32,000 nt of DNA from Candidatus Saccharimonadota bacterium (lineage in GTDB: Archaea; Micrarchaeota; Micrarchaeia; Micrarchaeales; Micrarchaeaceae), in NCBI GenBank assembly GCA_963705375.1, contig OY970071.1, positions 630,001-662,000 on the forward strand, read 5' to 3'. The translations under genes and the position numbers were made by a program. The notes beneath the pieces are model-generated. The model was not told the DNA's origin and searched no databases. It saw nothing but the letters and a program-made list of their open reading frames with translations. Every line of letters starts with the position of its first letter. The first letter of the stretch is position 1. Shown here piece by piece: positions 3,995 to 28,924 of the stretch.

Positions 3995-4465
3995 TCACTT
4001 TTGCTCAGGAACTTCTTGAGACGGATTTGCAGTTTGGACCGGCACAGCAGACGGCTTTCCGCCGCGTTTTTCTTGCTTTTCTGTTCGTACATTGACAAAC
4101 TGCAAAGCGACGTCTTCCTCTTGACTGCTTTCTGTCCACGCCTTTATATAAGATGCAATGTTCCTCAAAGGTTTTGAGAATCTGTCGGTCATCAGGTACG
4201 CGTTGTCTTCGTGCTTGAGCAGCCCAACCTGTACACCGTAGTCCAGGTACCTCTTCGCCGTAGCTATGGGTATGTGCTTAGGCACTTGCTTAAGCCGTAT
4301 TCCGTTGTTTCTTTTAGCTTCCAAGAGCAGGAGCGCGAACCGATACGCCTCGGTTTCGTTATCGAAGAATATTTTTGCGACTTCTCGCACCCGTACGTTC
4401 TTCAGTTTCTCTTTAAGCGGAGCATCCTCGAACTCCCAATACTTGATCGACAACCAGGCACCCAA
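3995..4465 (-). CDS. putative winged-helix DNA-binding protein
   Basis: 156-aa ORF with a TTG start and no in-frame ATG near the 5' end. A TATA-like aataataaatag sits about 21 nt upstream on the minus strand. The segment IPIATAKRYLDYGVQVGLLKHEDNAYLMTDRF looks like a recognition helix plus wing. The C-terminal tail is low-complexity. The stop lies 37 nt from the kinase-CYTH start, so co-transcription is likely. Confidence 0.55.
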   Translation of the reverse strand: MGAWLSIKYWEFEDAPLKEKLKNVRVREVAKIFFDNETEAYRFALLLLEAKRNNGIRLKQVPKHIPIATAKRYLDYGVQVGLLKHEDNAYLMTDRFSKPLRNIASYIKAWTESSQEEDVALQFVNVRTEKQEKRGGKPSAVPVQTANPSQEVPEQK

Positions 4466-4565
4466 TTGGTATTTGTACGCAACATCTATTTATTATTGCC
4501 GTTGGCTGCAAAGAACATGCTTAAATAGTCTCCCCGAGAGTAGTCGTACAGTAACAAGTGACTAA

Positions 4566-4643
4566 ATGGCGAAGAAAATTGCGAAGAAGACGACAAAGAA
4601 GACTTCAAAGAAGACGTCTAAGAAAGGATGCAGTTGCTGTTAA
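4566..4643 (+). CDS. 25-aa polybasic micro-protein ending in a Cys cluster (MAKKIAKKTTKKTSKKTSKKGCSCC)
   Basis: Hand-translated ATG..TAA, below the ORF-track size cut-off. A TATA-like gcttaaatag lies about 36 nt upstream. A perfect 10-bp hairpin plus T-run follows 3 nt after the stop. The coding region is built from 12-nt repeats (acgacaaagaag / acttcaaagaag / acgtctaagaaa). It could instead be a small non-coding RNA. Confidence 0.4.
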   Translation: MAKKIAKKTTKKTSKKTSKKGCSCC

Positions 4644-4645
4644 AG

Positions 4646-4682
4646 CAGGAATAGTCTTTACTATTCCTGACTTTCTATTTTT
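4646..4682 (+). terminator. hairpin plus oligo-T terminator after the micro-ORF
   Basis: caggaatagt (4646-4655), loop cttt, actattcctg (4660-4669) form a perfect 10-bp inverted repeat. It is followed by actttctattttt, which contains a T5 run. Confidence 0.6.
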
Positions 4683-4760
4683 GATGCATGCCGCATAGAC
4701 TGCCATGCGTGTTGGTCAAGACGCAACATCCACGAAAAATAAATGCCAGATGAGGGATAG

Positions 4761-5015
4761 TCACTTGGCATACATCGGTGCGCTTTTGACTTCGTGATAG
4801 TATTGTATAACTTTAATGGCCCCTACGACTACGTCAGCAGATTCATTCGTGTTTCCAGTTAGGCCGTACAATGCAATAATTATACGATCTGAATGCTTAT
4901 CCATAGTATAGAGGAAATTCGCCACGATAAGCGGTGTAGAGGATCCGTCTTTGATTGCAGCCACTATCATTTTTGCAGCGTCAGACTCTTCTTTTGATAT
5001 TGTTATACTGGGCAT
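4761..5015 (-). CDS. small hypothetical protein, paralog A (84 aa)
   Basis: ORF track, ATG at 5015. It is homologous to the 94-aa protein at 5262..5546: both start MPS, and they share the pattern A..IK..D.G....IV..FL...D...D.II.IA. A conserved promoter lies 20 nt upstream. Confidence 0.6.
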   Translation of the reverse strand: MPSITISKEESDAAKMIVAAIKDGSSTPLIVANFLYTMDKHSDRIIIALYGLTGNTNESADVVVGAIKVIQYYHEVKSAPMYAK

Positions 5016-5035
5016 AGTATTTCCATAGACTGTTC

Positions 5036-5047
5036 CAGATATTTAGG
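5036..5047 (-). promoter_or_regulatory. TATA box (sense CCTAAATATCTG) of paralog A
   Basis: The plus strand reads cagatatttagg. It lies 20 nt from the ATG at 5015. The same 12-mer recurs at 5572-5583. Confidence 0.6.
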
Positions 5048-5261
5048 TATTGTTATTTATGACAAAATATTTGCATGATTTTGTTACTTTGGTACTCTAA
5101 ATTGTATAGCGTTCATGATTCTGACAAAGGACGAGACAAAAGAGCTGCAAGGTAGCTGCAGTATCTGTACCATTATTTCTCTTTTAAGATAAGGCCAGTC
5201 AAGTACTCATTAAATGCACATTAGCCAGAGCACACCACTTGAAGGGCAGTAGCCAAACAGG

Positions 5262-5546
5262 TCAATAAAAATTATCGCTAGAAGAACCGCGCATCAACCC
5301 AGTGTGCAGCAACTTGCGCGAATTATAGCAGTGCTGAAGCTCGTCGCATGCATTTTTATATAGCCCCGCATATTCTTGGGATTTCAATCGTTTGCACGCA
5401 ATAGTAATAATGTGATCTGCAGTTTCATCAAGCTTATGAAGAAAAGTGTCCACTATGGTATTAGCACGGAAACGTCCACTATCTACAGAGGTTTTGATTG
5501 CCGCTTCAACTTCAGAAGCTTTGCTTTCAATTATTTTGCTCGGCAT
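5262..5546 (-). CDS. small hypothetical protein, paralog B (94 aa)
   Basis: Track ORF 5262..5555 begins at a GTG. The first ATG, at 5546, gives MPSKIIESKA..., parallel to paralog A. The TATA box lies 25 nt upstream. Confidence 0.6.
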   Translation of the reverse strand: MPSKIIESKASEVEAAIKTSVDSGRFRANTIVDTFLHKLDETADHIITIACKRLKSQEYAGLYKNACDELQHCYNSRKLLHTGLMRGSSSDNFY

Positions 5547-5571
5547 AATATTCACTTGAACATCTGGTTTT

Positions 5572-5583
5572 CAGATATTTAGG
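5572..5583 (-). promoter_or_regulatory. TATA box (sense CCTAAATATCTG) of paralog B
   Basis: The plus strand reads cagatatttagg, identical to 5036-5047. It is followed further upstream by a block about 55 nt long that is roughly 75% identical to the block next to paralog A. Confidence 0.6.
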
Positions 5584-5788
5584 TGTTGCTATTCATGACA
5601 GTGTGTTTGCAGAATTTTGTGGTTTTGTAAACTCTCACGGCGTGTAGAAATGCTAAGAGGTCAAGAGCACTAGCAACTAGGGACGGCCGTATTTCCATAA
5701 AGAAAAGGCTAATGGCGAATTCCTTGTAGGTGTTTAGGCCGAACAACTCAATAGATAGATTTTCTGCAAAGGCGAGTCCGAAGGGCGG

Positions 5789-5806
5789 AAATATATAAAT
5801 ATCTCC
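5789..5806 (+). promoter_or_regulatory. TATA box (aaatatataaatatctcc) for the 5833 gene
   Basis: A/T-rich box containing TAAATATCT, about 30 nt upstream of the ATG at 5833. Confidence 0.5.
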
Positions 5807-5832
5807 ATAAACTCATCGAATCCGATGGTATA

Positions 5833-6222
5833 ATGCCTAGCGATAAGAAAACGCATATAGCCGAAAATAAATCGGAGCCAAAGGAAAAGGTAGAATACAC
5901 TCTTGTTAAGGACGCTGTGTCGGACATCATATACTCGGAACAAAGAGAGGGAGTAATACTTACCATACATATTGAGGATGAAGACACTTTCAAATCATTA
6001 AACGGAATTTTAAGAGGTGTAGAAGAATTTGAGATTCACATGATGGGTAAAGAGCCTACTGGAAACGAAGAGTGTAATGTTGGGGAAATGAAAGACGGCG
6101 AACAAGTTGAATGGTTTGGACATCTATCGTTTATGGTAGCATCGAAGGGCAACATTCCCACCATCAGAAAGGATATGGAAGACCTAGCAAACGCGCCTGA
6201 AGGAGAGCGTGCCGATGAGTAA
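5833..6222 (+). CDS. acidic hypothetical protein (129 aa)
   Basis: ORF track, ATG start (MPSDKK...), promoter upstream. It ends 14 nt from the convergent SRP54 stop. No family recognised. Confidence 0.55.
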   Translation: MPSDKKTHIAENKSEPKEKVEYTLVKDAVSDIIYSEQREGVILTIHIEDEDTFKSLNGILRGVEEFEIHMMGKEPTGNEECNVGEMKDGEQVEWFGHLSFMVASKGNIPTIRKDMEDLANAPEGERADE

Positions 6223-7591: not shown

Positions 7592-8731
7592 ATGTTGAAA
7601 CTCATAATTGCACAGTCGAATCTGACGCTCAAGGGTGGTGCCGAGAGAGTAGTGCTGAAGATAGCCCAGCACTACGATGCGAGCATCTACACGGTAGAGT
7701 ACGACAAGAGCAAAACTTTTGATGAATTCAAAGACATCGATATAAAAGCCATCGGAAAGGGCGTGCTTTCAAAAATATTGCCTTATGGAAGGGTGGCGCA
7801 AGGGCTCAGTTACGGGATGGCGTTCTACAATCTCAAGCTCAAGGAAGACTACGACGTGATAAATGCGCACATGGTACCGAGCCACTGGATAAGGAACAAG
7901 AACGAACGAGTCCTGTGGTACGTGCACACGCCGTTCAGGGATGTCTATGACTTGTACGAATTCCGGATGAGGTTGAAAAAGTTCTACCAGAAGCCGGTCC
8001 ACTGGGCAGGCATAAAGGCAGTGAGAGGCATAGACCAGAATGTTGTGAAGCACATAGAGGGCATACTCTCAAACAGCTACAACACGCGCTCAAGGATAGT
8101 AAAATATTACGGCAGAAAAGATGCGACTGTGCTCAATGGCGGCGTCGAGTATGAGAAATATTCCAACAATGGCACAGAGAAATATTTCCTGTATCCGGCA
8201 AGGTTCTCCCCTAACAAGAGGCAAGAGTACGCGATGGAGGCTTTCAGACTGTTTGAAAAGAAGATAAAAGGCTACAAGCTTCTGCTTGTCGGACCAGTGT
8301 CTAAGGACAAGGCGTATTACGACTACTATCTGCGCATTGCTGAAGAAGCAAAGAAAAGCAGTGCAATCAAGATAATCAAGGATGTTGACGATGAAAAACT
8401 CAAGGACCTGTATTCCCGTTGTGCTGCTGTACTTTACACACCTGTGAATGAGGATTATGGGCTTGTGCCTCTTGAGGCCATGGCGAGCTCGAAGCCCATA
8501 ATAGCGGTGAATGAGGGGGGTCCTAAAGAAACAGTAGAGGACGGAAAGACTGGCTTCCTTGTGGACAGCGAACAGGCGATGGCAGAAAAGATGGCCGCTG
8601 TTGCGGAGAACCCGCAAATCTCAGAGGAGTTAGGTAAGAATGGCAGGAAGAGAGTGATGGATAGCTACTCTTGGAAGGCGTTCTTCAGGGAGTTTGACAA
8701 GCACCTTAGGGATGTGAGCAAAAAAGATTAG
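7592..8731 (+). CDS. glycosyltransferase, GT4 (GT-B fold) family
   Basis: 379-aa ORF with the C-terminal signature EDYGLVPLEAMASSKPIIAVNEGGPKETVEDGKTGFLV. Confidence 0.9.
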   Translation: MLKLIIAQSNLTLKGGAERVVLKIAQHYDASIYTVEYDKSKTFDEFKDIDIKAIGKGVLSKILPYGRVAQGLSYGMAFYNLKLKEDYDVINAHMVPSHWIRNKNERVLWYVHTPFRDVYDLYEFRMRLKKFYQKPVHWAGIKAVRGIDQNVVKHIEGILSNSYNTRSRIVKYYGRKDATVLNGGVEYEKYSNNGTEKYFLYPARFSPNKRQEYAMEAFRLFEKKIKGYKLLLVGPVSKDKAYYDYYLRIAEEAKKSSAIKIIKDVDDEKLKDLYSRCAAVLYTPVNEDYGLVPLEAMASSKPIIAVNEGGPKETVEDGKTGFLVDSEQAMAEKMAAVAENPQISEELGKNGRKRVMDSYSWKAFFREFDKHLRDVSKKD

Positions 8732-9126
8732 GGTTTGTTCCTTTCCCTGTCCTTTTCCTCGAGTCGCTTCTTTTCCGCGAGCCTCGTCTTCTCATCTTGA
8801 GGATTGAGCTCTATTACATACTTTGACACCACTTTTGCCACATAATCCAGGACGCGGCGAATGTTCGCCTCTGTGTTGGTGCCCGTGCATATGAGCTTAC
8901 CGTTCTTGAACAATATGATCTTGGACTTTGGCTCTGCCACTCTGAAGATTGCGCCCGGGAACTGCTCAGGCTCATAGTCGACAGCTTTAACATCCTTTGA
9001 AAGTGCGTAGAGATCTATGATTGCATGGAGATCAGCACTAACGACGATATTCTGCACTTTTATCTGCGGGACTGTAACGCGCTTTGGCTGCGCTGTTGAA
9101 GGCTTTTGAGGCTCTTTTTCAGACAT
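8728..9126 (-). CDS. single-repeat TATA-binding-protein (TBP) homolog, 132 aa
   Basis: [79 protein letters not shown] closely parallels the second repeat of archaeal TBP as I remember it (IDVQNMVFSGDIGREFNLD...[37 protein letters not shown]). Only one repeat is present. The start is taken at ATG 9126 (MSEKEPQK). The track ORF extends to 9192, which would run up to the divergent gene start. Confidence 0.8.
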   Translation of the reverse strand: [132 protein letters not shown]

Positions 9127-9163
9127 CTGATCACCACAAGTGTTAATAGATGTGAACGCAAGA

Positions 9164-9172
9164 CTTATATAG
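9164..9172. promoter_or_regulatory. TATA box (cttatatag) between the TBP-like gene and the reductase
   Basis: It lies 20 nt upstream of the ATG at 9193 (+) and 37 nt from the ATG at 9126 (-). Confidence 0.45.
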
Positions 9173-9192
9173 AGATGACACATGGTCAGCAC

Positions 9193-10293
9193 ATGAAAAA
9201 GAGTGTCGTAATAGTCGGGGCAGGAGTTGTCGGACTTTCGCTAGCGAGGGACCTCGCTTTGAAAGACATCGATGTTACCATCTATGACGCAAATAAACGC
9301 ATATTTGAAAATGCTGCAAGAGCTTCAGGGATACTCTCTGTCAATGGCCTTCAGAGGATAGCAATACCATACAAGAAAGCAGAAATCAACCGGCTCGCTG
9401 GCGCCGTGCTTCATGCAGGAAATGAGACTTTACGTGTAAAGGCACCACGCACAATGGCACTTGTCATAGACCGATGCAAACTTGCTGAAGAATGCCTTGC
9501 AGAAGCCGAAAAGGCAGGAGCAAGAATAATAATGGAACGAAGGCTCTACAAGGAAGAGGCAGCAAACATTGCGAAAAATAAAGACGTTGTGTTGGTCGGG
9601 GCTGATGGGGCAGTGTCGACAGTTGCGAATGCATTCTCGTTTCCGTCGATCAAAGAGTACATACTGACGTACAAAGTGGAATATGGAAATGCAAAAGTGG
9701 ATGACACTGACATTGTTGACATGTTCTTCTCCAACATAGCAAGCAGGTTCTTTGCCTGGACCGTGCCGTACTCTAAAGAAAAAGTGGAGGCAGGAATAGG
9801 AATAGGGTATTTTGCCAAGAGAAACAGTGCGGATGCATTCAGAACTTTTGAAAAGACGAATAGCGTGCTGATGAATGCAAAGCGTGGGAAAGAATGGGCG
9901 AGCATAATACCTTTGGGCTGCAGAGACATCACTGTAAAGGGAAATGTGGCGCTTGTGGGCGACGCTGCAGGACAGGTCAAGGCCACCACAGGAGGCGGCA
10001 TAATATTTGGAGTGTCATGCGCAAAGATACTTTCAGATGCGATAGAAAATCATATCAAGAAGGGCACATCTCTTTCACATTACGAGCACGCCTGGCGCAG
10101 GAAGTATGCAACAGATCTAAAGCTACACGATATGCTGCATAAGTATTACTCCGGAATCGACACCAGAAGCTTTGAGCACCTGTTCAGGATCTCCAAGCTT
10201 TTCGGAGCCGAAACCTTCCTGAGCAAATACGGCGACATGGACAGACCGAGCGCAATGATCAAGAAGTTCTTCCTAAGGGGCCTGGCCAGATAA
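9193..10293 (+). CDS. geranylgeranyl reductase family FAD-dependent oxidoreductase (archaeal lipid saturation type)
   Basis: The N-terminal Rossmann motif is MKKSVVIVGAGVVGLSLARDLA...IYD. The motifs VGADGAVS and GDAAGQVKATTGGGI are typical of the GGR family. The first ATG in the track ORF that fits the dinucleotide fold is 9193. Confidence 0.8.
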   Translation: MKKSVVIVGAGVVGLSLARDLALKDIDVTIYDANKRIFENAARASGILSVNGLQRIAIPYKKAEINRLAGAVLHAGNETLRVKAPRTMALVIDRCKLAEECLAEAEKAGARIIMERRLYKEEAANIAKNKDVVLVGADGAVSTVANAFSFPSIKEYILTYKVEYGNAKVDDTDIVDMFFSNIASRFFAWTVPYSKEKVEAGIGIGYFAKRNSADAFRTFEKTNSVLMNAKRGKEWASIIPLGCRDITVKGNVALVGDAAGQVKATTGGGIIFGVSCAKILSDAIENHIKKGTSLSHYEHAWRRKYATDLKLHDMLHKYYSGIDTRSFEHLFRISKLFGAETFLSKYGDMDRPSAMIKKFFLRGLAR

Positions 10294-10377: not shown

Positions 10378-10998
10378 CTACTTGTTGTAAGTATTACGAA
10401 AGGATTTGACGTATTTTTGCAATTTCTGCTCTGCAATCTCTGCTTCTTTTAATGCATCATTTGCTTGCCTAATATGCTTAGGCGCCATCGAGGCTGCAGC
10501 TAATACATCTCTTGCACCTGTAACATTCGTAGGTGTTAGTTTTTGCGTGGGCACATGTATGCTTGACATCTCAGTTTGAAAGCGCTTGCGTGCATCAGAT
10601 ATCTTAGAACTTAGGGTTTGATAATCGTGTGATTGCGCTATTGCTTCTTCAAATCTGACGTCAGCACGTACACCCACCAGAAGCGTACGCACATTAGCAA
10701 ACATACTGTTATTTCGCGTCTCCAAATCTTTTTTTTGGAGCGTCAACACACCTACCCCAAGATTCAACAAACTATTTAATCTAGCATTGTTAGTATTAGA
10801 CAAATTGCCTTTTATATTTTCAATTGAAGCAGCAAATTTTATACGTGTAGCTTCGGGCATAGGCTTCATTACGTCTGTCAGAAAGGCTTGTATTTCTTGT
10901 ACGCGTACGCGCTCGGCCAATGTGCTATGTGCCTTCGGTGCCGCGCCATCATGTTCTGTCTCGCTTGGCGATTTAGTCGCATTTACACGCTCCATCAT
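10378..10998 (-). CDS. hypothetical alpha-helical protein (206 aa)
   Basis: Track ORF 10378..11016. The start is taken at the ATG-ATG (MMERVNATK) 30 nt downstream of TATA tataaatatctga. No family recognised. Confidence 0.5.
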   Translation of the reverse strand: MMERVNATKSPSETEHDGAAPKAHSTLAERVRVQEIQAFLTDVMKPMPEATRIKFAASIENIKGNLSNTNNARLNSLLNLGVGVLTLQKKDLETRNNSMFANVRTLLVGVRADVRFEEAIAQSHDYQTLSSKISDARKRFQTEMSSIHVPTQKLTPTNVTGARDVLAAASMAPKHIRQANDALKEAEIAEQKLQKYVKSFRNTYNK

Positions 10999-11027
10999 AA
11001 CCACCAGGTACAACACGATTTTGATGT

Positions 11028-11043
11028 TTCAGATATTTATATA
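11028..11043 (-). promoter_or_regulatory. TATA box (sense gtatataaatatctga)
   Basis: The plus strand reads tcagatatttatatac. It carries the same TAAATATCTGA core as the promoters at 5036 and 5572. Confidence 0.5.
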
Positions 11044-11086
11044 CATAGGGAATGCAGCACATCAGCCTCAAAATATGTTTCTTTCG

Positions 11087-11926
11087 TCAAGGCAGGGAGT
11101 TTATCTGCGCTTGACTTGTGGCCTGGCTTACTGAAGATGCATTCAGCGATATCAGGATGCTGCTGCCGTTAGCGGCAGTGAGATTCGCGTAAACGTACAA
11201 CGGTATGTTGTACTGGGCTGAAAGGCATGTGTTGAAGTTGACGTTAACCGGTGTTTGAGTGGCAGAATTGCCGTCCACTAGAGTGCTGTTAACGAGCATA
11301 GACCCAGTGCCAGATACAGAGAAGCAGGGTTGCCCGTCGTACAGCTTCACTCCGTAAGAAGACATGGTTATGCCGCTGAGACTTGAAACGTTTATGAACA
11401 CGTTGGCGATGCCAAGCAGCTGAGACCATGCAGAGCCGTTGTAGGTCTGGACGCACTTGTAGCCGTTTGTTACGTTGTTACTTTCGATGGTGTCGAATAC
11501 GGAATTTGGATCGGCCTTTATGCACAGCGTGCCCTGCATGCTGCTCATATTTTTAGAGATCATCACGACGCTCAGGTTCCCGAACGGCTGCAAATCTTTT
11601 ATCGAAAGGGCCATTTTTGTGTCATTGTAGTATTTAGTGAATGAAAAGCTGATCGGGGGGTCTTTTTTGATTACGATCTGGCCTGTGTAGTTGACTGCAA
11701 AGGTTTTTGCAGCATTAATCTTCTGGGTCAGAGTGCCCTCGAGCACAGTCGAGTTCAACTGCTTTCCTGAAGATACTGTAGAAACCACTGCACCAGGAAG
11801 ACTGCCATAAGTTTCGTACAGGTACGCAATTATGACCGCGAGCATGAGCAATACCGCCAATGACGCCAGCAGGACTTTGTGACCTTTGCCTTTTTTGGCA
11901 TTCTTGCTTTCGTTATCTTTAGCCAT
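11087..11926 (-). CDS. N-terminally anchored, sequon-rich surface protein (279 aa)
   Basis: The start is taken at MAKDNESKNAKKGKGHK, followed by a TM helix (VLLASLAVLLMLAVIIAYL). I count about 12 N-x-S/T sequons. The C-terminal Cys-containing region resembles the C-termini of the 582-aa and pilin-like proteins. It lies 73 nt downstream of nuoN on the same strand. Confidence 0.6.
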   Translation of the reverse strand: MAKDNESKNAKKGKGHKVLLASLAVLLMLAVIIAYLYETYGSLPGAVVSTVSSGKQLNSTVLEGTLTQKINAAKTFAVNYTGQIVIKKDPPISFSFTKYYNDTKMALSIKDLQPFGNLSVVMISKNMSSMQGTLCIKADPNSVFDTIESNNVTNGYKCVQTYNGSAWSQLLGIANVFINVSSLSGITMSSYGVKLYDGQPCFSVSGTGSMLVNSTLVDGNSATQTPVNVNFNTCLSAQYNIPLYVYANLTAANGSSILISLNASSVSQATSQAQINSLP

Positions 11927-11999
11927 GAACACACACAAATATCTCAAATGACAAAGCTAAAATACCGATGCTCAGGGCAACCGCAATACCGCAAAGCGT

Positions 12000-13400
12000 T
12001 CAGACGCCCAATAGTGCCTTGCTCGCAATCTGCGCCACCGCTATTATTGGTTGGGGATATACGCCGAAAACCAGCAAGATTACCAGCGCAGACAGTACCA
12101 CAGCCGCAACAACAGGTTCGGTCTTTATGGCGGCATGTCCTTTTGTGGAGTACATCGCACTCACCAATCGGGCATAGTAGAACATGGAGATAAAGCTGTT
12201 CAGTATACCGATCAAAGCAAGAGCCAGCAGTTTTGAGTCTATAGCGCTTGAGAAGAGCAAGAACTTGCCCATGAAACCCATAAGGGGAGGCATCCCTGCC
12301 ATCGAAAGCACAAGCAGCGTCAGCGACGCAGCAGCAAACTTGTTCCTGCCATTAAGGCCTCCATAGTCGCTCAGGGTCTTAAGGTTGTTTGATTCGAGCC
12401 ACAGAACTATTGCAAATGCACCGATGATCATGAATGCGTGTGCAATAATCTGGAAGATGCTGGCCTCTATGCCGAACAGCGATGCAGCTGCAAGACCAAT
12501 GAGCAGATATCCAGTCTGAGATATTGATGAGTATGCAAAAAGGCGCTTTACGTTTTTTTCTCCAAGAGCCGCAAGATTCCCGAAAAACATGGTCATCACA
12601 GAAAGGCCTAGTGCGATTGAAGAGAAGGTGGTCTTGTATGCAGCAAATACAACAAACAGAATCTCAAGAAGCGCAACGAATGCAACGGTCCTGTTAACGC
12701 TGGAAAGCATCGCTGAAACGTATGATTGTGCGCCTTCGTAGACGTCAGGAACCCATAAGTTGAAGGGGAACACCTCGGCACCAAAGCCGAGCGCGACCAC
12801 AAACAAGACAAGTGCAAGGACTATAAGGGCGTTGCCGCTTATGTTTGGATTTACGCCTAGAACGCTAACGCCCATCTGTGCGCTGTATGGAGAGATAAGA
12901 ACAAGCGCAAAAGACAGCACCGAGATAGACACCGCACCCATTATGAAGAATTTTACTGCGGATTCCAGTTGGTACTTGCCAGAAAGCAGCATCATCAAGA
13001 TAGTCGGCACAGCCATGAGCTCAAGGCACACGAGAAGCAAAAGCAGCGTCGATGCAGCAGGCGCAAGCACTGCACCTGAGAAAACAAAGCATAGCATGAG
13101 CAGGTTCTCGGCATACGCATTCGAGTATCTATAGGAAAGTGCGTTAACCAGCAACAGTGTCAAGGAGGACAGAAACGCAAACAGCATGGAAAAGCCATAC
13201 ACCCTGAATGCGCCAAAAACAAGCGTGTCGATATTGGCGCTAAGAAGGTATGTCGATATGACCGCGTCTATCGCAAGAATCGCGCTGCTAGACACGAATG
13301 CTGTAGATTTAGACCTAGTAAGCACCGCAGCCATTGACATTGCAACCAATAGCGGCAGAGTGTACAAGAGCACACTAGACAATAGCAAAACAATAGCCAA
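12000..13400 (-). CDS. nuoN: NADH-quinone oxidoreductase subunit N (antiporter-like)
   Basis: 466-aa polytopic ORF containing FGAEVFPFNLWVPDVYEGAQSYVSAML, the NuoN/ND2 motif. It is the last gene of the H-to-N run. Confidence 0.85.
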   Translation of the reverse strand: MAIVLLLSSVLLYTLPLLVAMSMAAVLTRSKSTAFVSSSAILAIDAVISTYLLSANIDTLVFGAFRVYGFSMLFAFLSSLTLLLVNALSYRYSNAYAENLLMLCFVFSGAVLAPAASTLLLLLVCLELMAVPTILMMLLSGKYQLESAVKFFIMGAVSISVLSFALVLISPYSAQMGVSVLGVNPNISGNALIVLALVLFVVALGFGAEVFPFNLWVPDVYEGAQSYVSAMLSSVNRTVAFVALLEILFVVFAAYKTTFSSIALGLSVMTMFFGNLAALGEKNVKRLFAYSSISQTGYLLIGLAAASLFGIEASIFQIIAHAFMIIGAFAIVLWLESNNLKTLSDYGGLNGRNKFAAASLTLLVLSMAGMPPLMGFMGKFLLFSSAIDSKLLALALIGILNSFISMFYYARLVSAMYSTKGHAAIKTEPVVAAVVLSALVILLVFGVYPQPIIAVAQIASKALLGV

Positions 13401-13404
13401 TCAA

Positions 13405-14817
13405 TCACGTCTTAAGCAGGCCCAGCAGGATGTATGGGAAGATGCCAAATAAGAATATGAATGCCAGCAGCAGCGCATAACCAAGATACTGCGGCGCACC
13501 TATCAGTTCGGTGCTTGTGGAGTGGCCTTTTGCCGAGAACATCGAGCGTTCAACAACAAAGCACATGTATGCGCCGACAAGCAGCAGAGAGATGAGCGAT
13601 ATCGCGCCGTAAGCCCCGAACGCACTAACGGCACCAAGAAATACGAGAAGATAGCCCACAAAACCCGTGGTTAAGGGGAATCCGACGACCGCCAGCGCAC
13701 TCACAATGAACGCATACACCGTTTGCCCTGCATCGACAACGGCACCCTTGATAAGCCGGATATCCCTCTCTCCAAAAATGTGCTGAATTGACCCTAAAAC
13801 AAGGAACATCAGAGCAGCGGCCAACCCTTGGGAGAACATAGCGAATAGCGCGCCGTGCGTGCCGATGACATCGGCAGAGCTTATGCCGAGAAGTGCCACA
13901 CCGGTGCAAACCATCGAGGAGTACGCAGCGATGCGCTTTATGTCATTCTGATGCAATAGGACAAGTGAGGCATACACGGAAGATATTGTAGCTATTGTTG
14001 CGGCCAGCACAGAATATTTTGAGGATATCGGAAGCATCGTAAACAATAGCAGCATGCCGAATGTGCCGAACTGCGTAAATATTCCAGATAATAGCATCGA
14101 TCCCTGGGTCGACGACTCTGCGTGCGCGTCAGGAAGCCAGAAGTGGAACGGAAGCATCGGCATGTTTGCCATGAAAGCGACGAATAGTGCTGCGAATATA
14201 AGCGCTTGGGTTGTTTCTGGTATACCTGCAGCGGTGCCCGTTATGTACTGTATATCGAAAGAGTGCAAGGGTGTATGGAAATACACTAGCAGTATTCCAA
14301 AAATCAGGAGCGCCCCTGCAAAGAGCTCATACATCATGAATCCGATCGATGCGTGTGCCCTGTTCGCGGAACCGAGCATGTTGATCACAAGAAACATTGC
14401 GACGACTCCGATGCTCCAGAAGATGAACAGCAGGAACAGATTTGCCGAGGAGAAGAAGCCTATGGCAGCGACTTGGAAGAGCTCAACAAGCATGCTTTCC
14501 GCCTTGGGCCTGTCGCTTTCAGGACTGCCAGACATGGATGTTGCGAGCAAAATTGCAGAAGACATTAAAAGCATGATGAGAGACGTTGCATTGACGCTAA
14601 AGCCTAGCGATATGGATAGAGAGCCTATGTAGGGATAGCTCTCGTTGAAGTGTACGCTTCCAGCATGCATTGAGATGTAGAGCATTGAGACTGTTGCCAA
14701 CAGCGCAATAAACGCGGCACCGACAGCGATGCTTCTGCTGTATTTCTCGTCAAGCACCGATGTCAGCAAAATGGCAAGCACAGAGGATGCGAGCATTATG
14801 GATATGAAAGGGATCAT
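13405..14817 (-). CDS. nuoM: NADH-quinone oxidoreductase subunit M (antiporter-like)
   Basis: 470-aa polytopic ORF containing PMLPFHFWLPDAHAESSTQGSMLLSGIF, the NuoM/ND4 motif. Confidence 0.9.
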   Translation of the reverse strand: MIPFISIMLASSVLAILLTSVLDEKYSRSIAVGAAFIALLATVSMLYISMHAGSVHFNESYPYIGSLSISLGFSVNATSLIMLLMSSAILLATSMSGSPESDRPKAESMLVELFQVAAIGFFSSANLFLLFIFWSIGVVAMFLVINMLGSANRAHASIGFMMYELFAGALLIFGILLVYFHTPLHSFDIQYITGTAAGIPETTQALIFAALFVAFMANMPMLPFHFWLPDAHAESSTQGSMLLSGIFTQFGTFGMLLLFTMLPISSKYSVLAATIATISSVYASLVLLHQNDIKRIAAYSSMVCTGVALLGISSADVIGTHGALFAMFSQGLAAALMFLVLGSIQHIFGERDIRLIKGAVVDAGQTVYAFIVSALAVVGFPLTTGFVGYLLVFLGAVSAFGAYGAISLISLLLVGAYMCFVVERSMFSAKGHSTSTELIGAPQYLGYALLLAFIFLFGIFPYILLGLLKT

Positions 14818-14818
14818 C

Positions 14819-16723
14819 TCACCACACCACTAGAAGGACCATCACCACTATTGCGCCCACGACCAACAAAGGCACGTAAACATCTTCCCGTCCTTCTGTC
14901 ATTATACGTAGAGCAGATCCAAAGCGTGCGGCAGATCCAGCGCTACGTCTCATGAACAGATACAGTGCGTGATCGAAAACATAAACGACATTCGAGATCG
15001 CAAGCACTGCGCGCGCAACATACTGGTAGAAAATGTTGACAAGCACACCGTTGTACATCACAGCATACAGGCCGAGATGCTTCTTCATGTTGTACGGATT
15101 TGGATGAAGATACAGAACGTATGCAAATGCAAAGCCGGCTATTGCGGCAGCACACTCGATTATCACAGTCACAGACGCTGCGTTCAGCACGACCTTGCCG
15201 AAAGTCACAAAGAATGCAGGCAGGTACATGTACATGTGCGCGGAAAACGACAGCATTGTCAGCACTGCATGTGCATAAAACAATGCAAGACCCTCCAAAG
15301 CAGTGTTTTCAGAGGCGAAGCCAAGAGCGGCCGTGCCAAAAGTCCCAAGAAATTTGGGCAGGTACATGTATGCGAATGAAGAAAACACAGTAAGAGCCTC
15401 AAGCGCGTAGATGGGCACCATTATCGATATCGGCATTGTACTGTATATCCCTTTGATTTCACTGCGTGCGCCTGGGCGCATCGGCACTAATGCCCACTTG
15501 AACGCATATATGCTGCTTGCCATGCTCACGAGTACAAGGGCGGAATACACGAACATGTTCGATGATGCTGCGATCCCTATGCTTGATGATGCAAAAAATC
15601 CGCTAAGTGGAAACATGCCTGCGACTGAAACTGCACCTATTAGCGTAGCCAGAAAAAGAGGAGAGTGCAAAGACGGGCTGCGAATCCTGTAAATGTCGTC
15701 CTCATTGTCATTCGCGAGCATCATGGCACCAGCGCACATGAATAGCAGCGCAGTATAGAACGTCTGCACGATGAAAAGCAGCATAGCCGCGGACAGGGCA
15801 TTGAAACCCAATGCGACCACGATTAGGCCCAGGTTCCCTATCGCGGAATACGCAAGCATGCGCTTTATATTGCTCTCCGCCAACGCGTTTGACACACTGA
15901 GAAGCGCAGTCACCAATCCAGACACAACAAGAAGTCCAAGAAGGTCGTATCTTGCAAAAAGAGGAAGCAGCACGACCAGCAGGAACACGCCCGCTTTGGG
16001 CATCGTTGAAGAGAGGAGTAATGCCGATGACGGCGCAGGCGCTTCCATTGCATCGGGAAGCCATTCGTTGAATGGAAATTGCGCAGATTTGGTAAATGCG
16101 GCCACAATCAGCAACATGAGCGCGAACCCGACCTCTGGTTTTGATGGCGCTTGGAGCACTCCTGCAAAGCTAAGCGCCCCGTACGCGTTCCAGAGCAGCA
16201 GCATCGCGACGAACATAAGGATGTCGCCTAACAGCACGATTGTCATTGCCTTCCTTGCCGCGCCTTGGGCCTTGGCATTGGCATGCCAGAAGCCTATGAG
16301 CAGATAACTGGCAAGGCTGATGAGCTCCCAGCTTATTAGAAGCGTGATGAAGTTTGCAGATATTGCGAACAGCATCATCGATGCAGCGAATATGCACATC
16401 TCGAAATAATACCTGCCCTGTTCGCTTGGTACCTTCATGAAACCTAAGGAGTACACGAACATTATCATGGTTAGCGCTGCAACAAGAAGAAGCATGAGCG
16501 CATTCAGCTGCTGCAGCTCGGTCATGATGCTGAAAGTGAAACCTGGAACACTGAACCAGGTAATGGTTTGAAGGCCTGTGTTGTTCATAACAAGGTACAG
16601 AGCGAGAAGCAGGCTAAGGACGCTTGCAAAAAGGGAAACATAGCCAGACATGTGCCTATCGTTCAGCAGCACCGCGATGAGCGCAGCAACAAGAAGCGGC
16701 ACGGTTACGAGTATAGTGAGCAT
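14819..16723 (-). CDS. nuoL: NADH-quinone oxidoreductase subunit L (antiporter-like)
   Basis: 634-aa ORF with LISWELISLASYLLIGFWH, the NuoL/ND5 N-terminal motif. A long C-terminal helix/anchor region follows. The gene is 1 nt from nuoM and 1 nt from nuoK. Confidence 0.9.
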   Translation of the reverse strand: MLTILVTVPLLVAALIAVLLNDRHMSGYVSLFASVLSLLLALYLVMNNTGLQTITWFSVPGFTFSIMTELQQLNALMLLLVAALTMIMFVYSLGFMKVPSEQGRYYFEMCIFAASMMLFAISANFITLLISWELISLASYLLIGFWHANAKAQGAARKAMTIVLLGDILMFVAMLLLWNAYGALSFAGVLQAPSKPEVGFALMLLIVAAFTKSAQFPFNEWLPDAMEAPAPSSALLLSSTMPKAGVFLLVVLLPLFARYDLLGLLVVSGLVTALLSVSNALAESNIKRMLAYSAIGNLGLIVVALGFNALSAAMLLFIVQTFYTALLFMCAGAMMLANDNEDDIYRIRSPSLHSPLFLATLIGAVSVAGMFPLSGFFASSSIGIAASSNMFVYSALVLVSMASSIYAFKWALVPMRPGARSEIKGIYSTMPISIMVPIYALEALTVFSSFAYMYLPKFLGTFGTAALGFASENTALEGLALFYAHAVLTMLSFSAHMYMYLPAFFVTFGKVVLNAASVTVIIECAAAIAGFAFAYVLYLHPNPYNMKKHLGLYAVMYNGVLVNIFYQYVARAVLAISNVVYVFDHALYLFMRRSAGSAARFGSALRIMTEGREDVYVPLLVVGAIVVMVLLVVW

Positions 16724-16724
16724 A

Positions 16725-17024
16725 TCAATGCCTAAGCTTCGAAAGCTTCGTCAAGTCCATGCTCGAGTTCCATTTTGCCGTATAATGATACAGCACTATG
16801 AACGCCATGGTTTCTGCAGACGCAACAGACCACAATGAAAGCAGCAGAGGGAGCACGCTGCTTGTAGAGCTGTAATAGAACAGCGTCACTGCAAGAAGTG
16901 TGCTAGCGAGCAGCATCACCTCTATAGAGAGCCCCATCATAAGGAAGTGTTTGCTTGATGTGACACCTCCTGTGCCTAGCGCAAATATGGCAATACTCAG
17001 TGCTATGAAATAAATTGCTATCAT
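16725..17024 (-). CDS. nuoK: NADH-quinone oxidoreductase subunit K
   Basis: 99 aa with three TM helices. A membrane Glu is present in LSIEVMLLA, plus SVASAETMAF. It overlaps nuoJ by 4 nt. Confidence 0.85.
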   Translation of the reverse strand: MIAIYFIALSIAIFALGTGGVTSSKHFLMMGLSIEVMLLASTLLAVTLFYYSSTSSVLPLLLSLWSVASAETMAFIVLYHYTAKWNSSMDLTKLSKLRH

Positions 17025-17488
17025 CCCACTCGCCTCAGCAGCACTATAGTGCCTGTTCCTACTCCGAAAAGCATGAACACCAGGACATAGAGCATAGTAA
17101 TGTTTTGTGAAAGGCTTGAAGCTATAGCCTGTTCGGAAAGCACACTACCTTGAGTGCCAAGAAACGTGGCATGTGATGCTCCGTAATACATAGCTGCAAA
17201 GAATCCAAACGCGAGCAGGGCAAGAAGTACGCGGTTTATGCGCAGATGATTGTGGGCATCTGTGCTCGCTACGGCCACAATCAGATATGTCGCAATTCCA
17301 CCCACCATGACAAACAGCTGCATCAGCGCAAGAAGCGGCTGTTCAAGCGTGAGAAATATCAGTGAGACAGCAAAGAATGCAGCTGTAAGAGAAACAACGG
17401 CATGCAGCTGTTCCTTCAGCAAGAAGAGCATGACAAGTGACACCAACTCGAACAGCGAGAGCACGACAAACAACGCAAATTGCAGCAT
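17021..17488 (-). CDS. nuoJ: NADH-quinone oxidoreductase subunit J
   Basis: 155-aa hydrophobic ORF located between nuoI and nuoK. The assignment rests mainly on position, size and TM pattern. Confidence 0.7.
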   Translation of the reverse strand: MLQFALFVVLSLFELVSLVMLFLLKEQLHAVVSLTAAFFAVSLIFLTLEQPLLALMQLFVMVGGIATYLIVAVASTDAHNHLRINRVLLALLAFGFFAAMYYGASHATFLGTQGSVLSEQAIASSLSQNITMLYVLVFMLFGVGTGTIVLLRRVG

Positions 17489-17495
17489 CGAACCA

Positions 17496-17861
17496 CTAGT
17501 CCAGCTCTTCAGGCCTCTTTATGAAATCGCGCCTGTCGTAGCGCTCCAAGCCATCATAACACTTGGTGAGCGTCAGGCATCCTGTCGGGCACACCTCCTC
17601 GCACAAGCCACAAAAAAGGCAGCGCTCCAAGTTTATTTCTGGCATCTTCTTTGTGCCGCGTTCAGTATCCGTATCGACCATCGATATTGTGCTGTTGGGG
17701 CATATGAGCGCGCACGACGCGCAGCTTATGCACGTCTTCATGTCGAGCTTCTGGACACCACGGTAATTGTCAGCAACAATCGCCCTCTGTTCAGGGAACT
17801 CGAGAGTTGACGGCTTGCTCAGAATTTCGCGCACCACCTTTGTCACTGGATTCTTCACCAT
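17496..17861 (-). CDS. nuoI: NADH-quinone oxidoreductase subunit I (2x[4Fe-4S] ferredoxin-like)
   Basis: 121 aa with two CxxCxxCxxxCP motifs: CISCASCALICP and CLFCGLCEEVCP. It directly abuts nuoH. Confidence 0.9.
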   Translation of the reverse strand: MVKNPVTKVVREILSKPSTLEFPEQRAIVADNYRGVQKLDMKTCISCASCALICPNSTISMVDTDTERGTKKMPEINLERCLFCGLCEEVCPTGCLTLTKCYDGLERYDRRDFIKRPEELD

Positions 17862-18908
17862 CTACCTCACGAACAATATGAATGTAACTAATAAATTGAC
17901 CACTGCAAGCAGAGTTAGGTACAGCCAGCTCATCCGGAGAACTCTGTTTATTTTCATCCTCACGGTCGTGACCCTGAGCAATATGATGAGAAGCGCAACC
18001 AATGCGACCTTGGACATCAGGACCAAGAACTGGGGCACAATGGCCATGCTGTTCCACCCTCCAAGGAAAAGCTCTGAAATAAGCAGCGAGCCCACGAAGA
18101 GTCTTGTGTAATCGACCAGCGCCGAAAGGCAGTAATAAGGTGCAGGCACGTCTGTAAGCCGGCCTGCTATCAGCTCGCTGTCCGCTTCTCCGAGGTCGAA
18201 GGGAGGCCTCTCGAGTCCAGCGAGCAGCACCACAAAGAACACGATGAATCCGATAGGCATCATCACAACGAACCACATTTGCCGCTGCATGCCGACAATC
18301 GTGCTCATGCTGAAGCTGTTGGCCAGCATGGCAACAGATGCAACTACGAGCAGAAGAGGTATCTGGTAGCTGGTCTGCACGACTGCGGACCTGTAAGCCC
18401 CTACGGAGGCGTATTTGTTGCCGCTGGTCCAGCCTAGAAGGAATAACAGCAGCGGCAAGAACGAGAGCAGCACAAATATTGCAAGCATGCCAAATGTTGT
18501 GTTCACTCCGATGAAGGCGCCGTTCATAGGGATGAGCACAAGAACGACGAACAGCAGGGCGGCGAGCAGAGGCAGCGCTGCCTTGAATATCGGCTTGTCC
18601 GCATTGTCGGGCATTATGCCTTCCTTTGACATCAGCTTGAAGAAATCTGCAACGTTCTGCATCATGCCGTATTTTCCTACGTATGTAGGGCCGCGCCTGG
18701 ACTGTGAACGTGCGACGGCCTTGCGTTCTATCCACACAAAGAGGAAAATGAAAATGAAAACCAGCAGAGTCATGATGGCCGCAAAAGCGATAAGCGATAA
18801 AAGCAAGGACATATCCGCAAGAGCCGGCTTCGAAGCTACGGAAGGGGCAAGCGCATCGTATATTGAAGTGTAGTAAGCGCTCACCGCAGGAGAGCCGATC
18901 TGAGGCAT
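17862..18908 (-). CDS. nuoH: NADH-quinone oxidoreductase subunit H
   Basis: 348-aa ORF with ARSQSRRGPTYVGKYGMMQNVADFFKLMSKEG, the NuoH/ND1 signature. ATG at 18908 lies 20 nt downstream of a TATA box. Confidence 0.9.
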   Translation of the reverse strand: MPQIGSPAVSAYYTSIYDALAPSVASKPALADMSLLLSLIAFAAIMTLLVFIFIFLFVWIERKAVARSQSRRGPTYVGKYGMMQNVADFFKLMSKEGIMPDNADKPIFKAALPLLAALLFVVLVLIPMNGAFIGVNTTFGMLAIFVLLSFLPLLLFLLGWTSGNKYASVGAYRSAVVQTSYQIPLLLVVASVAMLANSFSMSTIVGMQRQMWFVVMMPIGFIVFFVVLLAGLERPPFDLGEADSELIAGRLTDVPAPYYCLSALVDYTRLFVGSLLISELFLGGWNSMAIVPQFLVLMSKVALVALLIILLRVTTVRMKINRVLRMSWLYLTLLAVVNLLVTFILFVR

Positions 18909-21439: not shown

Positions 21440-21467
21440 GAAAAGCACATGCGAAAATCTCAATTCA

Positions 21468-21480
21468 CCTATAAATATCT
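21468..21480. promoter_or_regulatory. bidirectional TATA box (cctataaatatct)
   Basis: It lies 18 nt from the ATG at 21499 (+) and 28 nt from the ATG at 21439 (-). It contains the TAAATATCT core. Confidence 0.55.
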
Positions 21481-21498
21481 TTTGTGAACAATCAGATT

Positions 21499-28819: not shown

Positions 28820-28924
28820 TTTATCACAGCAGTATCGCAAATTTCCAAATATAATATACTTGCCCCTTCAAAGGAAAGGTATAAGAACATTAATTTGTGC
28901 AAATGAAAAGAAATATGTGAGTCT

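Follow-up and report, generated by a model that had tools for sequence, protein, structure and literature searches.

A stand-alone single TBP repeat conserved across the Micrarchaeales

The 32,000-nucleotide stretch of DNA analysed here (the window, part of a 1.2-Mb contig) contains a gene, designated H, that encodes a genuine stand-alone single TATA-binding protein (TBP) repeat, at a locus with neither room for nor trace of a second repeat. H is a conserved, vertically inherited hallmark of the Micrarchaeales (DPANN archaea), present in at least 80 species. By the textbook argument, TBP's two-fold pseudo-symmetry points to a homodimeric one-repeat ancestor that was duplicated and fused, and we know of no natural, clearly TBP-like one-repeat form able to replace TBP that has been characterised. 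New here are an order-wide, highly conserved one-repeat TBP, a second one-repeat gene at the canonical TBP locus of its relatives, and two-repeat TBPs in sister lineages that appear to have been newly duplicated head to tail, the identity between their repeats reaching 92%. The reading that we favour, with moderate confidence, is that H is a conserved one-repeat TATA-binding protein derived within the Micrarchaeota, the H-H homodimer being its most likely physiological form.

The H gene and its surroundings

The open reading frame of H extends from an ATG at 9124–9126 to a stop codon at 8728–8730 (Table 1), and the 132-residue product is identical to a database protein (P0001). The longest mechanical reading frame begins at a GTG at 9192 and comprises 154 aa, and it intrudes on the divergent gene. 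The product matches Pfam PF00352 in one stretch that covers profile positions 1–85 of 85 (78.9 bits, E = 2.6e-22, cut-off 22.9), as anticipated by the first-pass annotation, which had described a 132-aa protein with a Pro/Lys-rich N-terminal tail, one TBP repeat at approximately residues 22–107 and a mixed-charge tail. A phmmer search of the PDB retrieved archaeal TBPs with E values from 1e-34 to 1e-31, and the single repeat can be aligned to either repeat of each of them. NCBIfam models of full-length TBP yielded 64–84 bits compared to cut-offs of 181–347; H matches the repeat profile of the TBP family (PF00352/arCOG01764) and does not have the two tandem repeats of that family. Both DNA-kinking phenylalanines are indeed retained, F56 (codon 8959–8961) within EQFPG and F73 (codon 8908–8910) within ILFKNGK, and the YEPEQFPG stirrup, which binds TFB in TBP, is intact. 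The chain stops 29 residues past the repeat, and residues 112–129 of the C-terminal tail are predicted as a helix in the structure model.

Table 1. Features of the H locus in window coordinates
Feature	Position	Strand	Basis and remarks
CDS of one-repeat TBP (H)	8728..9126	(-)	132 aa + stop codon
N-terminal tail, residues 1-20, Pro/Lys-rich	9067..9126	(-)	Length and sequence vary among orthologues
Single TBP repeat, residues 21-103	8818..9066	(-)	Pfam PF00352, PDB alignments, column-by-column conservation
C-terminal tail, residues 104-132, mixed-charge	8731..8817	(-)	Not conserved among orthologues
Shine-Dalgarno-like motif, GGTGAT	9130..9135	(-)	4 nt before the H ATG; conserved upstream of orthologues
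Box B, second AT-rich element (TTAATAGA / TCTATTAA)	9143..9150		By eye
Box A, palindromic TATA-like element (TTATATA / TATATAA)	9165..9171		Sequence; putative function
Divergent FAD-dependent oxidoreductase	9193..10293	(+)	Pfam DAO / FAD_binding_3; conserved neighbour
Convergent GT4 glycosyltransferase	7592..8731	(+)	Overlaps the H stop codon; conserved neighbour

A placement among RNase HIII-type proteins was considered and rejected. H belongs to the same fold class as helix-grip proteins such as the TBP-like N-domain of RNase HIII, but the sequence evidence for such a relationship is negligible: the NCBIfam model rnhC gave 14.8 bits (E = 0.013) against a cut-off of 161.2, and H has no RNase H domain.

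The neighbouring genes leave no space for another repeat, as had been pointed out before. A 66-nt spacer separates H from the oxidoreductase (67 nt start to start), the glycosyltransferase overlaps the H stop codon by 4 nt, and a six-frame hmmsearch detected no second TBP repeat in the 32-kb window. Box A is centred 42 nt from the H ATG, and the ATG of the divergent reductase is 25 nt from the same centre. Comparison by eye of 51 loci with the divergent arrangement revealed an equivalent of Box A (TATTTAAA / TATATAA, then CTTTC) and a counterpart of Box B (TTTAAATAT / TATAAATA) upstream of many orthologues. As to the suggestion that a symmetric TBP would fit bidirectionally placed TATA boxes, one TATA-like box does lie between the divergent start codons, but the link is conjectural, and orientation in archaea is set by contact between TFB and the BRE.

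The window belongs to the core chromosome and contains genes for SRP54, nuo subunits, EF-2, S7, S12, L30e, L7Ae and H+-PPase; neither Rfam matches nor tRNAs were found in it. A viral or mobile origin of H was rejected on account of this core-chromosome setting and of the IMG/VR collection, which contains no H-type gene and only two 39%-identical two-repeat TBPs.

Conservation among Micrarchaeales genomes

An identical H gene flanked by the same neighbours is present in an independent assembly (Logan contig L001), where no adjacent second repeat appears. Each of the 80 best-matching species genomes, all Micrarchaeota MAGs, contains one copy of H with a single repeat, in line with the expectation of orthologous single-repeat genes in related genomes. 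Among the best 120 protein clusters, 96 are one-repeat proteins of 91–174 aa; the lineage names attached to them, where given, are Micrarchaeota, Micrarchaeia or (likely mislabelled) Marsarchaeota. A six-frame hmmsearch of the window and 81 related loci (82 sources) found no second repeat in any frame. The surroundings of H are conserved as well, with GT4 present at 70, the FAD reductase at 69, NuoN at 52 and SRP54 at 47 of the 80 loci. Across one set of 45 genomes, mean identity to the window proteins was highest for H (75%), followed by SRP54 (67%), GT4 (60%), the reductase (53%) and NuoN (51%). H is under strong purifying selection, and its conservation exceeds that of SRP54 in the same genomes.

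Most annotated "half TBPs" turned out to be misannotations in earlier surveys (Brindefalk 2013, PMC3597702), and H could accordingly be suspected of being a pseudogene or a canonical TBP broken by frameshift, truncation or mis-assembly. The identical gene in the independent assembly, the 82 sources that each have a single repeat and are free of remnants in all frames, the synteny with conserved neighbours that tightly abut H, and the strong purifying selection refute a frameshift or misassembly and make an artefact of any kind exceedingly improbable.

Across 101 aligned H proteins, conservation is complete or reaches at least 90% at N26, V28, F56, P57, I71, F73, N75, K77, I79 and T81. F56 and F73 belong to the invariant positions, as does the entire stirrup Y51-E52-P53-E54-Q55-F56-P57-G58, whereas R62 is arginine in 70% of the proteins and lysine in at least one (P0242). 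We take these conserved positions, R62 included, to be the equivalents of the DNA-contact residues of yeast TBP; E52, E54 and Q55 presumably correspond to residues that contact TFIIB or TFB. The start position is ACG rather than ATG in 42 of 81 orthologous loci, the window gene being one of those with ATG; this would suggest that in most species H is expressed at a low level and has a specialised function instead of a general one. There are also 14 H-specific substitutions, some of them within elements S1 and H2 of the repeat. Gene callers truncate many of the orthologues, and annotation pipelines label them as hypothetical proteins or as full TBPs.

One-repeat and two-repeat TBP genes in the phylum

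Micrarchaeota TBP genes contain one, two or three repeats, and many lineages possess solely a one-repeat gene at the canonical L21e-TBP locus. At this site adjoining the ribosomal L21e gene, where other Micrarchaeota carry a two-repeat TBP, we found in related genomes a second, distinct one-repeat TBP gene, here called H2 (P0345, P0393, L094-L120). Its products are 99–118 aa long and, like H, have one repeat with the same contact residues and D50; the two proteins are 53% identical. Unlike H, which lies at a different locus, H2 occupies the ancestral DUF655-RpoF-L21e / TBP locus, has a normal ATG start, is less conserved (mean identity 77–80%, compared to 84% for H), is sometimes lost, and is sometimes re-duplicated into two-repeat genes. 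It is also nearer than H to the repeats of two-repeat TBPs.

H2 is hidden in protein searches, which rank one-repeat matches below the doubled scores of two-repeat proteins, and is common by a locus-based metagenome scan. Of 17 close relatives of the MAG REEA75, 14 have an H2-type one-repeat gene at the L21e locus and three, a 587-kb contig among them, have none there. REEA75 is the only MAG in which both H (L005) and H2 (P0345, L082) were seen; the contigs with H and H2 have GC contents of 56.2 and 56.7%, respectively, and their tetranucleotide profiles correlate with r = 0.89. The published complete Mia14 genome has two arCOG01764 (TBP) proteins, known by family label alone, and one TFB. None of the two-repeat TBPs among the best 120 matches per search lies on a large H-bearing contig, which is weak evidence that H may be the sole general TBP of its genome; the lack of H2 in the three relatives points indirectly the same way, and REEA75 and Mia14 point indirectly the other way.

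The two-repeat proteins P0389-P0392 are whole-unit head-to-tail duplications with repeats 85–91% identical, and these repeats resemble each other more than they resemble the nearest one-repeat gene. Judging from such comparisons, the two-repeat TBPs of Micrarchaeota look like re-duplicated one-repeat genes. The lowest divergence between TBP repeats highlighted earlier was that of Methanocaldococcus jannaschii.

H had been described as closely resembling the C-terminal repeat of TBP. Its score against generic profiles of N-type and C-type repeats lies in between (-1.4 bits, controls at -11.3 and +12.6), and with profiles made from the Micrarchaeota repeats it leans to C by 5 bits. We accordingly assign H to neither repeat type. 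In neighbour-joining (NJ) trees of 85-column repeats, the H proteins form a clade in 200 of 200 bootstrap replicates (100%), with 23% for its sister group; a long stem branch under the clade is followed by tight conservation. H is nested among the Micrarchaeota TBP repeats, next to H2, and has in common with them the motifs FKNGK and ICTG, as well as D50 in the case of H2. Because of this nesting, the lineage-specific residues and the secondary locus, H is probably a derived paralogue that reverted to the one-repeat architecture. It may have originated by duplication of, or fission from, Micrarchaeota's own TBP gene, followed by divergence.

The first-pass annotation had instead associated H with the hypothetical ancestor of TBP that preceded the duplication. 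Direct descent of H and the other Micrarchaeota one-repeat TBPs from such an ancestor would agree with the position of all Micrarchaeota repeat units midway between the generic N-type and C-type profiles and with the NJ trees, in which the two-repeat TBPs of the phylum show no separation into an N-repeat and a C-repeat clade, but drift towards an intermediate sequence is what one would expect of a symmetric dimer in any case. Other archaea and eukaryotes share TBP's N/C duplication, and under the established phylogeny Micrarchaeota would have to diverge ahead of every one of them for H to be an ancestral relic. The location of H inside the Micrarchaeota cloud and at a secondary locus, together with the demonstrably recent re-duplications that gave rise to two-repeat forms, likewise speaks against this interpretation, which we consider very unlikely.

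Proposed subunit pairing and relation to known systems

With one repeat per chain, a saddle needs two subunits, and H, which keeps the DNA- and TFB-contact residues, must dimerise to make one. We infer dimerisation, DNA binding, TFB binding and the choice of partner. In the AlphaFold model, the monomer has a pLDDT of 60, with strand S1 at the expected interface below 50. An artificial head-to-tail tandem of the H repeat is modelled as a complete TBP (pLDDT 93.3, pTM 0.82), and a Foldseek search aligned this model to solved TBPs with TM scores of 0.80–0.90 over ~185 columns; the modelling was driven by an alignment of two-repeat TBPs and therefore demonstrates compatibility with the TBP fold only. 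One H repeat would form half of the saddle, and two subunits, paired along their central strands, could make up a ten-stranded sheet with two-fold symmetry, each subunit contributing one phenylalanine pair for kinking the TATA element and one YEPEQFPG stirrup. TFB could dock on either stirrup, so that the direction of the promoter would be set by the TFB-BRE contact and not by TBP. H may also mix with its paralogue H2 where the H2 gene is present. Indirect support for one-repeat TBPs working as symmetric dimers in Micrarchaeota comes from the loci with only a one-repeat gene at L21e and from the fused near-identical units of P0389-P0392.

The first-pass annotation had concluded that a functional protein would have to homodimerise. 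The need for a dimer stands, but a homodimer is not the sole option, as H2 in related genomes and the two TBP-family proteins of Mia14 make a heterodimer a live alternative. It is possible, though in our estimate unlikely, that H and H2 are obligate partners in a pseudo-symmetric TBP split between two unlinked genes. REEA75, with its two genes on contigs of matching composition, and Mia14, with its single TFB, suggest that H may normally have a different partner; H2-type genes are frequent at the L21e locus of REEA75 relatives, H and H2 are mutual closest relatives, and the long stem branch of H followed by tight conservation would be expected after specialisation. However, H and H2 have been seen together in that one MAG only, the Mia14 pair is known by its family label, and the lack of H2 at the locus in three relatives argues against an obligate pair. 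Moreover, the stirrup and DNA-contact residues are the same in both proteins and hence exhibit no complementary asymmetry, and in more distant lineages the L21e locus has a one-repeat TBP although H is nowhere in evidence. These one-repeat TBPs and the recurrent fusion of identical units indicate that homodimers are evidently viable in the phylum. More doubtful still, in our view, is an accessory or regulatory role in which H would not itself bind promoters and would modulate transcription as a decoy or a dominant-negative partner, by capping H2 or a TBP or by titrating TFB. Such a role would suit the low abundance suggested by ACG, probably a weak start codon, at about half of the orthologous loci, as well as the location of H away from the phylum's TBP gene, the H-specific substitutions, and the precedent of halobacterial TbpA, a non-essential one-domain TBP. 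On the other hand, a mere decoy would not need to conserve every DNA-contact position, nearly all at 90% or more, and the description sits poorly with a protein that surpasses SRP54 in conservation and occurs as a syntenic single copy in 80 species or more.

These results lead us to a broader proposal, which we put forward tentatively and with slightly less confidence than the homodimer itself, that transcription in Micrarchaeales operates without any two-repeat TBP, the saddle being assembled from H and H2 one-repeat subunits, and that the unit has been repeatedly re-fused and reduced again. If this is the case, up to three dimers (HH, H2H2 and HH2) would act with a single TFB. Across the phylum, the fusion of the unit into two-repeat and three-repeat chains of nearly identical repeats and its renewed reduction would then amount to a living, reversible counterpart of the duplication and fusion by which TBP has long been supposed to have originated. 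H, in a phylum with TBP genes of such varied repeat number, is a natural test case for that origin. The binding of TATA elements by a symmetric TBP, the choice of direction with identical stirrups, and what asymmetry adds are all open to ordinary biochemistry.

Canonical archaeal TBPs (Pyrococcus woesei 1PCZ/1AIS, Sulfolobus acidocaldarius 1MP9) are ~40–50% identical to H in each of their repeats and share with it the kinking phenylalanine pair, the Asn/Val/Thr contacts and the TFB-binding YEPEQFPG stirrup. They differ in having two repeats per chain with a built-in N/C asymmetry, which would be lost in a saddle made of identical H halves or of H plus H2. For a switch from dimer to tandem or back, the closest parallel in concept is offered by archaeal histones, where a symmetric DNA-binding unit is formed either by two small subunits, as in the homodimers, or by one tandem chain, as in doublet histones; their fold and function are unrelated to those of H, and the parallel is an analogy only.

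Monopartite TBP-domain proteins have been reported from Thermococcales and Halobacteria only, and none from Micrarchaeota (PMC3597702). Those of Thermococcales are remotely TBP-like and always occur beside a normal TBP, and halobacterial TbpA is near-identical to the host's own TBP and non-essential (Brindefalk et al. 2013, PMC3597702). We found no description of a Micrarchaeota half-TBP in the full-text literature on half-size TBPs or Micrarchaeota genomes, and no TBP entry in a portion of the supplements on Ca. Micrarchaeum harzensis. Like the reported proteins, H is a stand-alone protein of less than 150 aa whose single TBP domain has no second one beside it, in a genomic context that excludes a truncated TBP. 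By lineage and by their descriptions, it falls outside both the Thermococcales class and TbpA. H differs from the reported monopartite proteins in being a bona fide TBP repeat (79 bits, Pfam) that is order-wide, chromosomal and syntenic, and in belonging to a clade in which a one-repeat protein is the usual product even of the canonical TBP locus.

A conserved gene with a single TBP repeat

The H protein (half-TBP) contains one complete TBP repeat at residues 21–103 (Pfam, 78.9 bits, E = 2.6e-22), and a six-frame profile scan found no further TBP repeat in the 32-kb window, which agrees with the stand-alone single repeat and the lone domain match expected in the first-pass annotation. With H as query, the match to the full-length TBP models of NCBIfam is confined to one half, with scores far under their cut-offs. 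Archaeal TBPs in the PDB are matched at E values of 1e-34 to 1e-31 (phmmer), and the repeat can be aligned to their N or C repeats about equally. An intermediate profile score speaks against the specific resemblance to the C-terminal repeat proposed earlier. Both DNA-kinking phenylalanines are present as described (F56 in EQFPG, F73 in ILFKNGK). The neighbours also lie as described, with an FAD-dependent oxidoreductase starting 66 nt upstream on the opposite strand and a GT4 glycosyltransferase overlapping the H stop codon by 4 nt. The coordinates are collected in the table, which includes window ORFs with no Pfam match; two of these, of 212 and 286 aa, separate the nuo cluster from the reductase, and homologues were detected in none and in 1 of 80 related loci, respectively.

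Coordinates of the features discussed (window positions unless a locus is given)
Feature	Locus	Position (strand)	Description
H CDS	window	8728–9126 (-)	ORF, 132 aa
Spacer	window	9127–9192	between H and divergent reductase
AT-rich second box	window	9143–9150	in 66-nt spacer
TATA-like palindromic box	window	9165–9171	42 nt from H ATG, 25 nt from reductase ATG
P0345 (H2)	L082	3622–3975	L21e locus; 117 aa, one repeat, 51% identical to H
H2 family	L094–L120 + P0345		DUF655-RpoF-L21e locus; 99–118 aa, one repeat
L21e locus with transporter	L092	9080–10984	contig Ga0307374_10000001, 586,870 bp; MFS-type transporter after L21e instead of H2
P0246	L170	1100–1483	H locus, divergent FAD reductase alongside; one repeat
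P0389–P0392	L086	10001–10591	two-repeat TBPs
P0124	L083	58–909	three-repeat ORF, confirmed on L083
ORFs without Pfam match	window	10378–11947 (-), 308–1325, 3995–4465, 5833–6222, 20981–21858, 28148–28840	124–286 aa
Region without long ORF	window	4466–5832	~1.4 kb, lower GC (0.42); no ORF ≥110 aa, tRNA or Rfam match; two minus-strand ORFs (84 and 97 aa), possible weak mutual similarity by eye
Nuo gene run	window	12000–18908 (-)	NuoL/M/N/J/H-type genes; membrane-arm subunits only, here and in Logan contig L001
H+-pyrophosphatase	window	28925–30949 (+)	in DPANN genome of ~1.2 Mb

A protein identical to H (P0001) lies on a 1,209,602-bp NCBI contig, and the identical gene with the same neighbours occurs on an independently assembled Logan contig. 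One-repeat proteins of 91–174 aa make up 96 of the best 120 database clusters, and where a lineage name is given it is Micrarchaeota or Micrarchaeia, a few mislabelled records aside. With each GTDB species represented by one genome, a scan returned at least 303 relatives. The best 80 of these are all Micrarchaeota MAGs of separate species in which the match spans a single repeat, and within ±6 kb, whatever the frame, each locus contains just the one repeat; the orthologous single-repeat genes that the annotation suggested looking for are found in related genomes. GT4 is nearby in 70 of the 80 loci, the FAD reductase in 69, NuoN in 52 and SRP54 in 47. Given the identical gene in an independent assembly, the single repeat at all loci and the conserved neighbourhood, an assembly artefact is ruled out and has next to no probability as an explanation of H. 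In the 45 genomes where all could be compared, mean identity to the window protein is 75% for the half-TBP, compared with 67% for SRP54, 60% for GT4, 53% for the reductase and 51% for NuoN. The gene content of the window is that of an ordinary core chromosome, and no H-type gene was found in IMG/VR.

Across 101 aligned one-repeat proteins, conservation is complete or at least 90% at N26, V28, F56, P57, I71, F73, N75, K77, I79 and T81 and in the stirrup Y51-E52-P53-E54-Q55-F56-P57-G58. In the TBP complexes of yeast and Pyrococcus these positions are equivalent to residues that contact the minor groove, the phosphates and TFIIB/TFB (yeast E186, E188 and L189 for the last). The alignment also shows 14 H-specific positions (V29, D32, H34, A35, S43, K44, A48, D50, I70, I71, T85, N88, V92, S101). 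Judged from it, H keeps the residues needed by a TBP.

The spacer and the start codons

In a reading by eye of 51 loci with the divergent arrangement, the two-box layout followed by GGTGAT recurs upstream of many orthologues, conserved in the spacers of L002–L081 as TATTTAAA / TATATAA then CTTTC, TTTAAATAT / TATAAATA, and then GGTGAT. Such a spacer is compatible with back-to-back promoters and is no specific sign of a symmetric TBP, which the annotation had linked to bidirectional TATA boxes. In 42 of 81 orthologous loci ACG fills the in-frame position 7–11 nt past the conserved GGTG(A/G/T)T motif; ACA, ACC and ACT never stand there, and the next codon varies synonymously. In 15 loci the stretch from the upstream stop codon to strand S1 lacks ATG, GTG and TTG, and ACG is the first codon after that stop in about 12. 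A conserved non-canonical ACG initiation codon is probable in H orthologues, and would account for the truncated proteins of 91–101 aa reported by gene callers. The orthologous start positions concerned lie in L004–L081; H of the window (9124–9126) and the H2 genes start with ATG.

A second one-repeat type and variable repeat number

Two-repeat TBPs are present in other Micrarchaeota (Anstonellales and others), where their genes adjoin those of ribosomal protein L21e, RpoF and DUF655. In the MAG REEA75 this position is held by P0345, a second one-repeat type (H2), and the locus shows no trace of another repeat; the same MAG carries H (L005), and the two contigs are alike in GC and tetranucleotide usage. 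A locus-based scan of JGI metagenomes, for which an alignment of DUF655 served as query and the gene beside L21e was then read, showed H2 to be common. Among the 17 informative loci nearest REEA75, a one-repeat H2 gene of 99–112 aa is found in 14 and a two-repeat gene in none; three (L092, L108, L119) have no TBP gene there, so that H2 is either dispensable in these or relocated. In lineages more distant from REEA75 both one-repeat and two-repeat genes occur at this locus. The published gene-content table for the complete genome of Mia14 (Ca. Mancarchaeum, Micrarchaeales) lists two arCOG01764 (TBP) proteins and one TFB, and a single TBP in 13 of the 14 other DPANN genomes. The L21e position of H2, the presence of both types in REEA75 and the two TBPs of Mia14 identify H as a second one-repeat paralogue; it sits at its own locus and is not positionally orthologous to TBP.

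In the two-repeat proteins retrieved, mostly Micrarchaeota-type TBPs, N and C repeats are on average 68% and at most 92% identical, compared with 42–49% in Pyrococcus and Sulfolobus and a mean of 44% in 86 diverse TBPs. These repeats form no separate clades in the tree, and same-chain repeats are sister leaves in 6 of 42 proteins. The two-repeat proteins nearest H2 (P0389–P0392) are head-to-tail copies of the whole unit, including its N-terminal leader (AKR..LKP.FKIENIV) and tail (KYIL). Their repeats are 85–91% identical to each other and 81–84% to the nearest one-repeat genes, the higher mutual identity indicating recent re-duplication of a one-repeat gene. With N and C repeats 80–92% identical in P0389–P0392, P0194, P0046 and others, such TBPs are far more symmetric than any highlighted in the literature we read. 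Three consecutive repeats occur in ORFs P0121, P0124, P0125 and P0239 (272–283 aa), all on contigs shorter than 2 kb, which limits their context and authenticity accordingly. A 376-aa protein with four repeats (P0240) resembles a eukaryotic TBP in duplicate and is possibly an artefact of assembly. These interconversions of repeat number provide indirect evidence for symmetric dimers of one-repeat TBPs in Micrarchaeota.

Origin of H and its proposed dimer

H is monophyletic in 200 of 200 and 300 of 300 bootstraps. P0246 groups with it (79%) and combines an H-like first half with a second half similar to units of the H2 or two-repeat type; it represents a basal H lineage, or else gene conversion between paralogues produced it. 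In the best tree H is sister to H2, at a weakly supported node (23%), and H is 53% identical to H2 versus 46–48% to the repeats of two-repeat TBPs. D50 is common to H, H2 and P0389–P0392, and FKNGK, ICTG and a further 10-letter string are common to H and the whole phylum. All Micrarchaeota units score as intermediate when compared with generic profiles of the N and C types (H -1.4 bits, controls -11.3 and +12.6). This fits symmetrisation and is also compatible with an ancestral-like state, a point in favour of H as a relic of the pre-duplication ancestor suggested in the annotation. The N/C duplication of TBP is common to other archaea and eukaryotes and H occupies a secondary locus, for which reasons we read H as a derived reversion; as H moreover groups among Micrarchaeota repeats, we regard a relic as very improbable.

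Because one repeat is half a saddle, H needs a partner. AlphaFold modelled the monomer poorly (pLDDT 60.4), with strand S1, the inter-repeat seam strand in TBP, below 50. An artificial head-to-tail tandem of the window repeat, aligned with two-repeat TBPs, reached pLDDT 93.3 and pTM 0.82, and TM values of 0.80–0.90 over ~185 columns against solved TBPs; since the two runs used different input alignments, the tandem model indicates compatibility rather than proof. We propose that H is a subunit of a dimeric TBP, in which two subunits would form a symmetric saddle, kink TATA DNA with two Phe pairs and present two identical TFB-binding stirrups. Promoter direction would then be set by the TFB-BRE contact, on which it reportedly depends at archaeal promoters (Bell et al. 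1999; Littlefield et al. 1999).

The annotation held that H would have to homodimerise. A homodimer is still our first choice and somewhat probable as the physiological form; the requirement itself falls away with the H2 paralogue, which makes a mixed dimer possible. A dimer of H with H2 has to be taken seriously as a rival to the homodimer, and H2 accompanies H in REEA75; in its obligate form we consider it rather unlikely. A regulatory decoy role, in a protein that retains the contact residues, is more doubtful still.

In the literature searched we found no description of the Micrarchaeota half-TBP family, of H2, or of near-identical and triple repeats. The saddle-forming pairing proposed for H is distinct from the known inhibitory TBP-TBP dimer, which hides the DNA-binding face (e.g., 1VOK). 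One-domain archaeal TBP proteins are already known as remote Thermococcales proteins or as halobacterial TbpA, and both groups are accompanied by a normal TBP (Brindefalk et al. 2013, PMC3597702).
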